From the sequence record MT446410.1: a DNA stretch of 64,000 bases; one strand, given 5' to 3'. Shown one piece after another: positions 33,289 through 44,233 of this stretch. This DNA comes from Escherichia virus TH38. The notes under the pieces are model-generated. The model saw only the letters and a list, made by a program, of their open reading frames with translations, was not told the DNA's origin and searched no databases. The translations under genes were made by a program, and so were the position numbers. Position 1 is the stretch's first letter. Each line of letters starts with the position of its first letter.

Positions 33289-35133
33289 TTAGTGTGTATG
33301 CATCCAGTTAAGTCCAATCTGACAATCAGATGCCAGAGGACATTCCATGTTCAGATACTCGCCAGCTTTCTTAACACAAAGCTCAGTGTGCTCTTTGAGT
33401 TTCTGTACATCATTACGGTTTACTGAGAATTGACCTTCATCGTGCATATCAATTACCTTAGCACAACGAACCTTATCTTTCTCAATCCACTTGTTAAGGA
33501 ACATCATAGCATATTTCATAACAACAGCACCAGCACATTGCAGGAGTGTGTTAAGGGCTTTATGAACCATAACCTTACCAGTGGCATCCCGTCTCATTGT
33601 AATCTTACGACCATCAACTCCAATCAAGTATCCTTGAGCAGCTTTCTCTGTCATACGATCAATGAGGATTGCAATACATGGGTTCTCTGCTAAGAAACGT
33701 GCTCGCATCACTGAACCTTCGTCAGCCCCACCACCTACAATTGAACCAAGCTTAGCATCGCCAGCACCGTAGTTGAATGCATAGATAAATGTCTTAGCGT
33801 TGTCACGAGTAGGAAGACCAGCAAGTTTCTGGTTGTGGGAGTGGATATCACCTTCAAGGAGAATATCACGATACATAATAGCAGAAGCTAAACCACGTTC
33901 TGCCAGAGCTTTCTTAGCTGGGTTGTTCTCTTCAATTGCTTCAGCAAGCATATCCCTACACTCTTTAATGAGGTAGTGAGCGAGCATACGAAGTTCCAGT
34001 CCAGAACCATCATACCCTAAGAATACTTCTTTACCAGCGGGTATGTAATATTTGTAAGCGCCTACAGGTTTGTCTTTCTTCCCCGGCTTACCTTTCTCGT
34101 AAATTACGTTAGTACCTTTTCGTATATAACAACCATCAGGAACAACGTTAGTAATAACGAAAGGACGAGAGTGATCACTGTCTGAGTTATAGTCAGACTC
34201 AAACAAACTGCGACACTCGTGACCAAACAGACCACGGGAGGGAATATTAACCACGATACGATGTTTGAATCGAAAAGTCGGCGTAGCGCAGCTGTTAGCT
34301 TCTGCCGAAAGTTTACCATCTTCGCGTTCCTTTGCTATGAGTCCACTGATAAGACCTAGCCTGTGAGCCGCCACAACGCGTCTCTTAAGCAAACTTCCGA
34401 CACTCCCTAGCTCACCCCCTAACCCTTCTTCAAGAGTCTCCTCGAGGTTTGTAGGAGCTGTAGGCCACTTGTTTGATGTGGCTAGTGCTTTCTTAATCTC
34501 ATCAAACGTTACAGGATTACGGCGATTAGGGTTTAATCCCAAACCAAATACGTAAGCCTTCATATAATTCTTAGTTTTAAACCTGAAATGCTTTTCTAAG
34601 AACTTCTTAATATCAGCGTCAACCATCTCGGCTGTCTGCTTCTGCTTAGCATTGCCTCGCATCCAAGCAGTATACCATGCTTGGTATGTTCCATACTTTC
34701 TCATATCTTTCTTAATTTCGAAAGTATTCCAAGGCTTCTTAGATACGTTAAACTCTGGAGGAAGAAAGCCCTCATCCATAAGAGCTTCTTTAACTCGTGC
34801 ATCTTTCGATGGGTCAAAGTCTACGTATTCGACACAGGTGAAAGCTCCACCAATATCTTCTCTCTTCAGCCCAACCCTATCACAATAGGATTGAGGCCAC
34901 TTCTGTAAAGCTCCAGACTTCTTAAATGGCTTCATATAAGTAGAGCCATCTAATCTCATCTTAGGTAAGAGAGGAATCAGTTCTTTGTCAATATTAACAA
35001 TAATCTCTTTAAGGAGGTGAACATACCACCGAGCATTTCTTCGGTTGAAACTCACTCCGTGCTTCGCTTGCTTAGAGATTATATCAGCGACAGTCATCTC
35101 TGTCAAAAATGGGAGAGCGTCCGGGTTGCTCAC
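33289..35133 (-). CDS. DNA polymerase, family A, polymerase domain only
   Basis: Motif A DGSGLELR, motif B KTFIYAFNYGAG, motif C VIDMHDEGQ; no 3'-5' exonuclease motifs in this ORF. Confidence 0.85.
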   Translation of the reverse strand: MSNPDALPFLTEMTVADIISKQAKHGVSFNRRNARWYVHLLKEIIVNIDKELIPLLPKMRLDGSTYMKPFKKSGALQKWPQSYCDRVGLKREDIGGAFTCVEYVDFDPSKDARVKEALMDEGFLPPEFNVSKKPWNTFEIKKDMRKYGTYQAWYTAWMRGNAKQKQTAEMVDADIKKFLEKHFRFKTKNYMKAYVFGLGLNPNRRNPVTFDEIKKALATSNKWPTAPTNLEETLEEGLGGELGSVGSLLKRRVVAAHRLGLISGLIAKEREDGKLSAEANSCATPTFRFKHRIVVNIPSRGLFGHECRSLFESDYNSDSDHSRPFVITNVVPDGCYIRKGTNVIYEKGKPGKKDKPVGAYKYYIPAGKEVFLGYDGSGLELRMLAHYLIKECRDMLAEAIEENNPAKKALAERGLASAIMYRDILLEGDIHSHNQKLAGLPTRDNAKTFIYAFNYGAGDAKLGSIVGGGADEGSVMRARFLAENPCIAILIDRMTEKAAQGYLIGVDGRKITMRRDATGKVMVHKALNTLLQCAGAVVMKYAMMFLNKWIEKDKVRCAKVIDMHDEGQFSVNRNDVQKLKEHTELCVKKAGEYLNMECPLASDCQIGLNWMHTH

Positions 35134-35149
35134 TTTATACTCCTTTAAA

Positions 35150-35572
35150 TTATTGGTAAAGTAAATCTGTAAATGCTTGGTTATCTTCTATCACATCTAA
35201 CACGGTAGCTTCATAACTGTAAGCCCTAACCGCCCCGTTAACAACTATCCGAGGAGTAGGTGGAGGTGGTGCATGATTAGCCCTAGCTTCACGAGGTTGC
35301 TCTCGTACTAAATGAGCCACAACCCTTTGGTTAGCGACTTCTTCTCTTTCTCGGATAGCTCTCTGGATATAAGCCAACTTCATACCCCAAGCTTCTTCAA
35401 ACTCTTGAGGGTGCTTATCACTGATAACTACATACTGACGTTCAGAGATACCAGATCGAATTTCTGATAAAAGTTCATGGAACAAGTCCAGTTCATGTTC
35501 AGTGAGATTCATTTCAATATCATCCCACTTTAGAACTAGGAAACGGTTTTGGTGTCTAGCTGGTAATGGCAT
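35150..35572 (-). CDS. hypothetical protein
   Basis: 140-aa ORF. Confidence 0.4.
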   Translation of the reverse strand: MPLPARHQNRFLVLKWDDIEMNLTEHELDLFHELLSEIRSGISERQYVVISDKHPQEFEEAWGMKLAYIQRAIREREEVANQRVVAHLVREQPREARANHAPPPPTPRIVVNGAVRAYSYEATVLDVIEDNQAFTDLLYQ

Positions 35573-35575
35573 AAC

Positions 35576-35860
35576 TCAACCTCTTGGGAATGGCATCAAA
35601 AATTCCACAGCAGATTTAATTTCATTATTGATTCTTGAATCACGATAAGAGATAAACTTACCTTTGCTATCACGTAACATCACATTAGTTCTGGCTGTTT
35701 TGTGAGGGAGTAATGTGACACTAGTTGGAATAGTATCAATCCCTACAGCGTATTTGTCAATAGTCTTACTTTCAGCCAACAGATAAGACCAAGTACGCGG
35801 TTTCTGCTCCGGGCGGTTAGGGTATGTGTCCCGAATTTGAACCATAGCTAACTTATTCAT
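35576..35860 (-). CDS. hypothetical protein, tandem paralog A
   Basis: Shares ARTNV.LR...GKFISY...A.E.L.PFP.G with next gene. Confidence 0.45.
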   Translation of the reverse strand: MNKLAMVQIRDTYPNRPEQKPRTWSYLLAESKTIDKYAVGIDTIPTSVTLLPHKTARTNVMLRDSKGKFISYRDSRINNEIKSAVEFLMPFPRG

Positions 35861-42303: not shown

Positions 42304-42312
42304 TCTTATTCC

Positions 42313-43674
42313 TTAGTTGTTTGTTTCCATGTCAAAAGAGATTCCACGACCCGCTTCATCGGCAAACCGAACTGTGCGGGTTTGAGGTTCTAATACTTCA
42401 GGGTTGTTAGCAACAAAGCGGTCAGCGAGATTTCGACTGATGGTCTCAGCAAGTTCCTCATGAGAAGGAACATCAAGACTACCTGCCACATCTTGGGCCA
42501 CACCTTCATCAGTCCACACAGCCCTAACAGGTGCGTTGATATCACCAACAGCAAAACCCTGACCAGAGAACTGACGTGCGCTAACAGTTAAACCATTTGG
42601 ACGACCACGAGAAGGACTAGCCATCCATCTCTCCATAGAATCACTTGTAATACCAAGAGCTTCTTCAAAAGATGTTCTACGAGTAGGGCTTACTCTTCGT
42701 GACTCTTGTGCTCGGCGCATTGCAGGGGCTACAAACACCCCTTCAATTGCATTGTGCCGATTAGGTTCATCTTCTCGACCAAGGAGATCTCCTCCTGTAT
42801 TAGTTGTTAAGTTTGTCAACCCTTCAGACCAATATGCACGAATCTGGCTAGAGCCATGAATGCTTGACATTAACTGAATCTCTTCATAAGGGATTCCAAA
42901 GAATCGACTCATGTCTCGGTTAACACAATATTGAGCACTTGTTGTATCCTCAATAAGAGAAACCTGACCTAATCCATTAACCAGATGACTAACCGGCTGG
43001 GGTGTGGGAAGATATCGAGTTTGGGCCATGTATTGATGTGCAACTGCTGGAGAGGAAAATCTCAATACTTGCGAGTTAGGCCACTTCTTGTGAACGTATC
43101 TGATTTCACGACTAGAAACAACCACTGGACAGGGGGCGGTCATAGCCAAATACCCATGAGAAGTCATGAATAAATTGTCAAGAGTCATCGCACCACGACA
43201 CATCATAGGAAAATTATCCAATACCTCTTCAATAGAAGTAGGATAATTAAACATGAATTGGATACGAACCCCATTCCACTGAAACTCAATAATATCAGTG
43301 AATGTTAATTGAGAACCCCCAGCATAGGATTCGTTCGTAGCTTCAGCAAGAAGGGATGCATACTCGATATCTTGTGACTCTAGCCATTCCTTCACATTAC
43401 TTTCAATCTCTCTTCCAAGAGCTTGCCAACGGTCAGTTGGGATGGATATGTTTTGAGTTCTTGGTGTTTGTCCTCTGACAATAAAGATATCAATGTCATG
43501 TGGAGCTGTGTTATTAAGCACAGCATCTCGAACAGCCCCACCAGTAATGATGGGACAGATACCGTCTGGAATTAAGTTGTTATTAATCAATTGCTCAATG
43601 AAGTGACGACCAACAGTGATATCAGGTTGTTGAGAAACCTTATCTTCAATTTGGTTAATCGGGATAACAATCAT
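42313..43674 (-). CDS. nucleotidyltransferase (CCA-adding/poly(A) polymerase-like head) fused to large unknown C-terminal region
   Basis: GGAVRDAVLNNTAPHDIDIFI class-II NTase motif near N-terminus; start at internal ATG (MIVIPINQ...) next to exonuclease stop. Confidence 0.5.
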   Translation of the reverse strand: MIVIPINQIEDKVSQQPDITVGRHFIEQLINNNLIPDGICPIITGGAVRDAVLNNTAPHDIDIFIVRGQTPRTQNISIPTDRWQALGREIESNVKEWLESQDIEYASLLAEATNESYAGGSQLTFTDIIEFQWNGVRIQFMFNYPTSIEEVLDNFPMMCRGAMTLDNLFMTSHGYLAMTAPCPVVVSSREIRYVHKKWPNSQVLRFSSPAVAHQYMAQTRYLPTPQPVSHLVNGLGQVSLIEDTTSAQYCVNRDMSRFFGIPYEEIQLMSSIHGSSQIRAYWSEGLTNLTTNTGGDLLGREDEPNRHNAIEGVFVAPAMRRAQESRRVSPTRRTSFEEALGITSDSMERWMASPSRGRPNGLTVSARQFSGQGFAVGDINAPVRAVWTDEGVAQDVAGSLDVPSHEELAETISRNLADRFVANNPEVLEPQTRTVRFADEAGRGISFDMETNN

Positions 43675-43675
43675 T

Positions 43676-44233
43676 TTACATTTTCCAATATAATGAAGGT
43701 GGGTCGTAAGGGTCGAATCCTGTGAGTTCACACAAGTATTTATAAACCTTAACGGTTAAGTTAACGTCCTGTTCACAATAAGTAAACATATCTTCAGTGA
43801 AAGCATCCCATGCTTCCTCTTGCTCACCGTAATCTCCTTTAAGTTCCTCTAAGAACTCACCCCACTGCTTCAAGCCATGACCTCTTGGGCCATGTCTAGG
43901 GTCGCCTTTCGGATACTCAGGACTGTCACCAATACGGTCAGGTTTAAGATATCGACTAAGACATAGAGTGTCAAAGACGTTAAAATGATATTTAATCAAA
44001 GAAGGATACATCTTCTTCAGAGCAGGTAAGTCGAAGTCAATAATGTTATGACCAACGAGCACATCAGCTTCTGTAAGTTTACGAATCCCGTCTTCAATTT
44101 GGTGAGGCCGATAGCCCCACCTTTCACCAGTTTCAACATTGAAGATGTAAATACACCATACTTTAGTTATGTCATCGTACAGTGCATTACTCTCGATATC
44201 GAATGCAAACACTTTCTTCTTTTTCTTTACCAC
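43676..44233 (-). CDS. 3'-5' exonuclease (DEDDy, DNA polymerase proofreading domain as separate gene)
   Basis: Exo I FAFDIESN, Exo [11 protein letters not shown], Exo III YCEQDV. Confidence 0.8.

Follow-up and report, generated by a model that had tools for sequence, protein, structure and literature searches.

Separate genes for the proofreading exonuclease and the polymerase domain of a T7-type DNA polymerase in Escherichia virus TH38

Family-A DNA polymerases are normally single chains. The window considered here, by which is meant the whole stretch of 64,000 nucleotides (nt) analysed from Escherichia virus TH38 (record MT446410.1), encodes such an enzyme in two pieces, a 3'-5' exonuclease and a polymerase domain, which lie in distinct open reading frames (ORFs) on the same minus strand. 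The two genes are 8,542 nt apart (35134-43675), with about 22 ORFs in between, in good agreement with a preliminary description of the DNA, which had placed them ~8.5 kb and ~20 genes from each other. The whole region is a long leftward gene cluster on the minus strand, in which a primase/helicase gene lies upstream of the exonuclease gene and overlaps it by 7 nt. The features on which the argument turns are as follows.

44227-46017, minus strand: primase/helicase of the T7 gp4 type, 596 amino acids (aa), with Pfam DnaB_C and a weak Toprim_2
43676-44233, minus strand: 3'-5' proofreading exonuclease subunit, 185 aa, DEDDy, homologue of phiEco32 gp74
35134-43675, minus strand: exonuclease–polymerase interval, with nucleotidyltransferase, dCTP deaminase, Dps/ferritin-like protein, thioredoxin, HNH endonuclease, ThyX, ligase Ia domain, PhoH and small ORFs
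33289-35133, minus strand: family-A DNA polymerase domain only (thumb, palm and fingers), 614 aa, homologue of phiEco32 gp53

The exonuclease gene begins with a GTG codon, preceded by GGAG 7 nt upstream and overlapping the stop codon of the primase/helicase gene, an arrangement which is compatible with translational coupling. Its product matches Pfam PF01612 (DNA_pol_A_exo1) with E=1.8e-9 and 38.1 bits, against a gathering cutoff of 23.6, and there are weak additional matches to RNase_H_2 and to the exonuclease of the mitochondrial polymerase. The residues of Exo I (DxE, D12/E14), Exo II (NxxxFD, H62-N63...D68) and Exo III (YxxxD, Y152...D156), among them the catalytic D12, E14, D68, Y152 and D156, are all invariant across 41 homologues with identities down to 35%; together with the Pfam match, this bears out the earlier assignment of a DEDDy 3'-5' exonuclease to 43676-44233. 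Among sequences in the PDB the best match is T7 gp5, over residues 3-182 (E=3e-11). The structure predicted by AlphaFold2 (AF2), with a predicted local distance difference test score (pLDDT) of 93.8, gives the same picture, in that the top 27 Foldseek matches in the PDB are all T7 gp5, with E of about 1e-10 to 1e-9, whereas stand-alone nucleases (TREX1/2, ExoI, diDNase) are ~1e5-fold worse, the best of them having an E of 1e-5 or worse. All 64 relatives of the exonuclease in a large protein collection are short proteins (about 100-250 aa) that stand alone; the relatives found at greater distance, in phage genomes, form the N-terminal domains of fused autographivirus polymerases.

The polymerase gene also begins with GTG, with AAGGAG upstream at a 6-nt spacer. 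The sole Pfam domain of its product is PF00476 (DNA_pol_A), at residues 361-611 (E=2.5e-23; 83.1 bits against a gathering cutoff of 34.3). Motif A (D375/E380), motif B (R443/K447/Y451/G456) and motif C (H564-D565-E566) are invariant in 47 homologues, as is the C-terminal H614, which aligns with T7 H704. Thus the polymerase domain with motifs A, B and C of the preliminary description stands, and only its end coordinate, given there as 35135, contained a slip of 2 nt, the correct value being 35133. The best match in the PDB by sequence is again T7 gp5, whose residues 289-704 are covered in four collinear stretches (E=1e-32), and by fold the AF2 model (pLDDT 90.3) finds T7 gp5 first, with E=1e-25, followed by enzymes of the Bst/Klenow type at about 1e-15. 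The N-terminus of this model opens with long thumb helices and has no RNase-H-like sheet. Indeed, no hidden exonuclease domain was found in the polymerase ORF by Pfam at E<=0.01, and when either a hidden Markov model (HMM) built from the 41 exonuclease homologues or the T7 exonuclease domain (with phmmer) was run against all six-frame ORFs of the window, the sole match was 43676-44233. A search of the same six-frame ORFs found no second copy of the exonuclease or of the polymerase elsewhere in the window. The two genes are, as had been claimed, neither a fusion nor an adjacent pair, with PF01612 in the one and PF00476 only in the other.

When the two proteins are considered together, their relationship becomes evident. 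In a global alignment the exonuclease followed by the polymerase is collinear with T7 gp5, the exonuclease corresponding to residues 1-196 and the polymerase to about 205-704, with the break at about residue 200. The same concatenation aligns end to end, at 45-47% identity, with fused polymerases of ~600 aa (P0174, P0176, P0180, P0181 and P0183), where the break falls exactly in the short linker that leads from the Exo III helix to the first (thumb) helix of the polymerase domain. The exonuclease alone matches the N-terminal domain of these fused proteins in register, with 45-47% identity, and their C-terminal part fits the polymerase equally well. Moreover, the position of the exonuclease gene, directly after the primase/helicase gene, is that of the 5' end of T7 gene 5. 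The two ORFs are therefore halves of a single replicative family-A polymerase of the T7 gp5 type, and the view that one polymerase has been split in two is upheld by both alignments. Since the DEDDy residues and the polymerase motifs are invariant in 41 and 47 homologues, respectively, down to 35-39% identity, both halves are intact and under purifying selection.

In terms of the classification of family-A polymerases (PolA), the polymerase ORF fits the T7-like subfamily (cluster 5) by its closest solved relative, T7 gp5, by its motif-B Tyr and by its C-terminal His. Cluster 5 has a Tyr at ‘position B3’ (PMC10201439); Y451, which aligns with T7 Tyr526, is in our own reading the likely equivalent. 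A further feature of the cluster, a single polypeptide with an N-terminal exonuclease domain, is absent from the polymerase ORF, which is a split variant of the T7-like subfamily, a type previously reported among its other members. The region that corresponds in the alignment to T7 262-338, the thioredoxin-binding loop, is present and ~30 aa shorter by pairwise alignment, and there are three Kuravirus-specific insertions with respect to the fused relatives, at roughly residues 150-245, 312-368 and 390-420.

Judged by its sequence, the genome is a member of Kuravirus (Gordonclarkvirinae). Over a 13.1-kb stretch the identity is 98.2% to Escherichia phages EC.W2-6 and EC.W8-1 and some 96% to other close relatives; at least 80% of this stretch is covered by 61 records, and the gene order matches that of phiEco32 (NC_010324). 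The pair in the window is the same system as gp74 and gp53 of phiEco32, with protein identities of 96% for the exonuclease (to phi32_74) and 99.5% for the polymerase (to phi32_53), the same order, and a gap of 8.0 kb versus 8.5 kb here. The two phages differ only in the accessory genes of the gap, where the window has an HNH gene between those for thioredoxin and ThyX and a few other small ORFs; the interval holds 20 coding sequences (CDSs) in phiEco32 and 23 in the closest annotated relative. In RefSeq, phi32_74 is a ‘DNA polymerase exonuclease subunit; contains 3'-5' exonuclease domain’ and phi32_53 is a ‘DNA polymerase; lacks 5'-3' and 3'-5' exonuclease domains’. The 2012 paper on phage tf noted that polymerase and proofreading exonuclease have a gene each in every LUZ24-group phage, and likewise in phiEco32 (PMC3517423), and in 2023 the separation was explicitly stated for Kuravirus (PMC9965538). 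In other words, the split arrangement is already annotated and published for phiEco32-like phages, and the comparison with related phages that the preliminary description had proposed finds it in phiEco32 and other Kuravirus. The same pair is present in further Kuravirus/Gordonclarkvirinae phages, namely YF01, SU10, 7-11, Privateer, Vp_R1 and BUCT695. What is newly added here is the monophyly of the clade with distant halves, its separateness from the clade with adjacent halves, and the range of gap lengths, which together are a modest refinement.

A survey covered 80 IMG/VR loci that contain a relative of the exonuclease. Of these, about 55 carry a fused gene, about 15 have the two parts in adjacent or overlapping genes, and a few are broken elsewhere. 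Distant halves were compared in seven genomes or contigs, across which the order primase/helicase, exonuclease, gap, polymerase is constant and the gap ranges from 0.15 to 8.5 kb:

L085, metagenomic contig: gap of 155 nt, with one small ORF
Ab22, Bruynoghevirus: gap of 1.9 kb
L086, metagenomic contig: gap of 4.6 kb
ECO319P1, Crifsvirus: gap of 7.8 kb
phiEco32, Kuravirus: gap of 8.0 kb
KarlSchell_Bas89, Kuravirus-like: gap of 8.2 kb
The window, Kuravirus: gap of 8.5 kb

All the genomes and contigs examined contain exonuclease and polymerase in this order, and the step from helicase to exonuclease is kept in phiEco32, Bas89, ECO319P1, Ab22, L085 and L086. Neighbour-joining of polymerase domains gave a tree in which the polymerase-only sequences are monophyletic (bootstrap 92/100), with the fused P0174-P0183 group as sister (82/100), and they join the adjacent-split clade of the cyanophage type in 0/100 replicates. 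Members of the distant-split clade belong to Kuravirus, Crifsvirus and Bruynoghevirus, alongside metagenomic relatives. The simplest reading of these sequence comparisons would be one old fission in this clade, independent of that of the cyanophage type, with stepwise gain of accessory genes thereafter.

Comparison with known systems places the arrangement in context. T7 gene 5 is the best match for both halves, with collinear domains, the motif-B Tyr and the C-terminal His in common, and the module order of helicase, polymerase and 5'-3' exonuclease is also that of T7. The C-terminal tail of the primase/helicase is acidic and ends in Trp, just as the tail of T7 gp4 is acidic with an aromatic end. 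T7 gp5, however, is one chain of 704 aa, whereas here the enzyme comes as two chains, encoded 8.5 kb from each other; the thioredoxin-loop region is about 30 aa shorter; the polymerase has its three insertions relative to the closest fused relatives; and thioredoxin is encoded by the phage, whereas T7 uses that of its host. Another known system is the split PolA of S-SBP1-like cyanophages (Czernecki et al., NAR 2023, PMC10201439), a gene fission in other T7-like phages described in the 2023 reclassification, which shares the shortened thioredoxin-binding domain (TBD) region and for which preservation of a non-covalent complex is predicted; its genes, unlike those in the window, are adjacent or overlapping and derive from a recent frameshift (PMC10201439). 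Since the adjacent-split loci form a separate clade (0/100 bootstraps with that of the window), the two fissions were probably independent.

The LUZ24/PaP3/tf group (Bruynoghevirus), with its ‘DNA polymerase part I / exonuclease subunit’ and polymerase, falls in the same clade as the window and has the same order of helicase, exonuclease, gap, polymerase and 5'-3' exonuclease, and it also shares the upstream genes for a RimK-like protein (‘ribosomal protein S6 glutaminyl transferase’) and a gamma-glutamyl cyclotransferase. It differs, in Ab22, in that the gap is 1.9 kb with 7 small genes, the polymerase is 545 aa and lacks part of the extra Kuravirus sequence, and no thioredoxin is annotated. 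Indeed, polymerases of ~610 aa have extra sequence, at about residues 56-135 and 150-245, that is lacking in the shorter polymerases of the clade, that of Ab22 being ~70 aa shorter. A functional analogy is offered by E. coli Pol III alpha/epsilon and archaeal PolD DP2/DP1, in which polymerase and 3'-5' exonuclease are separate chains assembled non-covalently (PMC10201439), although these belong to the unrelated families C and D, whereas here both parts come from one family-A chain.

The signals for expression within the interval may bear on how the two halves are produced. An exact copy of the core of the promoter for the gp36 sigma factor of phiEco32, TAATGTATA, lies at 36539-36547 on the minus strand, in the intergenic region after PhoH and between the exonuclease and polymerase genes. 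It is one of 5 exact copies in the window, at 2598, 20142, 30039, 30111 and 36539. Some 360 nt downstream of it, at 36158-36181 on the minus strand, is a strong terminator-like hairpin with a 10-bp stem containing 6 GC pairs and a T-run. In phiEco32 the polymerase and the nucleotide-metabolism cluster are of the middle class (PMC8948821); different temporal classes for the exonuclease and the polymerase were considered and not adopted.

A separate observation concerns the start of the polymerase gene. The 64-kb window has a single perfect sigma-70 consensus promoter, TTGACA-17 nt-TATAAT plus the TG of an extended −10, which lies at 35078-35106 on the minus strand, inside the polymerase ORF (codons 10-19), 27 nt into the coding sequence and in the same direction as the gene. 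It is identical in phiEco32 and is not among the four early promoters given in the literature consulted on phiEco32-type phages. In KarlSchell_Bas89 the −35 element has been lost through synonymous changes, and TGATATAAT lies within a 23-nt block free of substitutions, with variable flanking codons.

What the two separate chains do together is a matter of inference, and the preliminary description had named a two-subunit polymerase and subfunctionalisation as the alternatives. The former is probable. An ancestral gene of the T7 gp5 type would have been cut by fission in the linker that joins the Exo III helix to the first thumb helix, most likely once, in the ancestor of the podophage polymerase clade that now comprises Kuravirus, Crifsvirus, Bruynoghevirus and metagenomic relatives. 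Accessory genes (for nucleotide metabolism, thioredoxin, homing endonucleases and small ORFs) would then have piled up at the junction, widening the gap from about 0.15 to 8.5 kb, each half retaining its own ribosome-binding site, start and stop, and both belonging to the middle class and to the same strand. The 21-kDa exonuclease and the 69-kDa polymerase would then probably re-associate non-covalently into a T7-like proofreading holoenzyme, which would dock on, or work with, the gp4-like primase/helicase. Three considerations weigh against this picture. The tree of the polymerase was made by neighbour-joining only, and genomic context was checked for part of the polymerase-only proteins; no biochemical or structural evidence for a gp74–gp53 complex was found in the accessible literature; and, since the hairpin and the gp36-type motif lie between the genes, the exonuclease and polymerase may be transcribed separately and produced in differing quantities.

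These last signals are also what gives subfunctionalisation, an unlikely alternative yet the most substantial, its appeal. On this view the polymerase would be a stand-alone replicase that does not proofread and the exonuclease an independent protein, its dosage possibly set separately, that edits in trans without a stable complex or serves in repair, recombination or primer processing. Besides the 8.5 kb between the genes, in which both a terminator-like hairpin and a promoter motif for the phage sigma factor are located, it would draw on the overlap of the exonuclease start with the helicase stop, which would tie expression of the exonuclease to the helicase and not to the polymerase, and on the three lineage-specific insertions in the Kuravirus polymerase, which could have altered the old interface. 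The exonuclease, however, is specifically of the T7 polymerase type, as its fold matches show, and it is accompanied by the polymerase, in the same order, wherever the pair has been examined. Moreover, PolAs are said to need the exonuclease domain for stability, and in an independently split T7-like PolA the AF2 model of the complex superposes on a fused relative (PMC10201439). It is very improbable, by comparison, that in the 185-aa protein we have an unrelated DEDD nuclease which happens to lie near replication genes, leaving the phage polymerase without proofreading: the weak RNase_H_2 and mitochondrial matches would allow it, whereas by sequence and by fold its best matches are PolA exonuclease domains without exception, the identity to the N-terminal domain of fused polymerases is in register, and the gene sits right after the primase/helicase, where T7 gene 5 would begin. 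As an identity for the protein it was rejected on the alignment with fused relatives and the T7 gp5 fold matches.

Scarcely credible is the idea that the halves are rejoined, whether by a split intein, trans-splicing, frameshift or bypass, or that the split is an artefact of assembly or sequencing. Some encouragement for rejoining might be taken from the intron-like interruption, with an endonuclease gene, in the polymerase of some relatives (Bas89 ‘j2’, FH3, 1-6af and fragments of ~450 aa). Against it, the end of the exonuclease and the start of the polymerase coincide with the linker of the fused relatives, such that intein halves could not be accommodated, the genes are separated by 8.5 kb and about 22 ORFs, and a separate Shine–Dalgarno sequence, start and stop are present for each. 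Proteomics of SU10 virion preparations, furthermore, lists the polymerase product at 69 kDa, the size of the polymerase-only chain (PMC4281155), and, as regards an artefact, the identical arrangement occurs in more than 60 independently sequenced genomes.

A more speculative reading can be envisaged, which is something of a long shot. The break between the domains may have served as a long-lived insertion site at which accessory genes go on gathering, given a gap of 0.15 to 8.5 kb within one clade and homing endonucleases whose positions differ between close relatives, with the exonuclease uncoupled from the polymerase and its expression tied to the helicase, such that the phage could set the stoichiometry of proofreading separately. 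Were this true, mutation rate or tolerance of modified nucleotides would be tunable apart from polymerase dosage, and the exonuclease subunit could serve as a module for fidelity that is regulated or exchangeable, as opposed to a fixed domain. More generally, because a family-A polymerase is ordinarily one chain and is considered to depend on its exonuclease domain for stability, a natural, stably inherited split of this type is a useful model for the origin of replicase subunits and for the engineering of separable proofreading.

Some relatives have a further interruption, within the polymerase-domain gene itself, where an insert of about 0.6-0.8 kb follows the first 450 or so codons. In KarlSchell_Bas89 (L087, 20742-23366) the insert carries an endonuclease gene and the CDS (‘j2’) is annotated as joined from two pieces, in the manner of an intron. 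The interrupted gene is also found in FH3, 1-6af and 1-6bf, and fragments of ~450 aa are represented by P0078-P0081 and P0146-P0170. In phages with such a gene the polymerase is thus in three coding pieces; the gene in the window is uninterrupted.

The remaining features of the interval, and one beyond it, are as follows.

42313-43674, minus strand: ‘nucleotidyltransferase’ of relatives, 453 aa, with a weak, sub-threshold match to the head of poly(A) polymerase/CCA-adding enzymes (GGAVRD...DIDIF)
41572-41769, 41363-41572 and 41154-41363, minus strand: three tandem small paralogues of 65-69 aa, with weak similarity (E about 1e-4), all ending in KV[YHI]Y
39669-39947, minus strand: thioredoxin, the phage's own, inside the exonuclease–polymerase interval
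39212-39682, minus strand: HNH endonuclease (HNH_3, E=2e-13), between the thioredoxin and ThyX genes and overlapping both
37465-37794, minus strand: Ia domain only of an NAD+-dependent DNA ligase, 109 aa (Pfam Nlig-Ia, E=2e-35)
35862-36116 and 35576-35860, minus strand: tandem small paralogues of 84 and 94 aa, respectively, which share 45% identity over 55 aa (E=9e-15) and the motif ARTNV.LR...GKFISY
25777-26619, minus strand: 5'-3' exonuclease, FEN-like, analogue of T7 gene 6, with weak matches to Pfam 5_3_exonuc_N (E=5e-7) and 5_3_exonuc, both below the gathering score

The last of these is the third nuclease/polymerase function of the replication module. It sits at the position of phi32_33, annotated as ‘exonuclease, similar to exonuclease domain of DNA polymerase I’, and the 5'-3' exonuclease has been listed as a separately encoded subunit (PMC9965538). 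As regards thioredoxin, that of the phage has been suggested to be the processivity factor of this split polymerase (PMC7881722). Crifsvirus ECO319P1 also encodes one in its exonuclease–polymerase interval, and none is annotated in Bruynoghevirus Ab22.

The gene content of the interval differs between close relatives, for example in the positions of HNH genes. That between thioredoxin and ThyX in the window is absent from this site in phiEco32 and EC.W8-1, both of which have HNH genes elsewhere in the interval, and homing endonucleases appear to move around inside it. The gene for the 453-aa protein is directly downstream of the exonuclease gene, its start lying 2 nt past the exonuclease stop. 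The ligase Ia protein, whose phiEco32 homologue is annotated as plain ‘DNA ligase’ although adenylation and OB domains are lacking, is a further case of a replication enzyme, normally multidomain, of which a fragment stands alone, and it might act on the LigA of the host.

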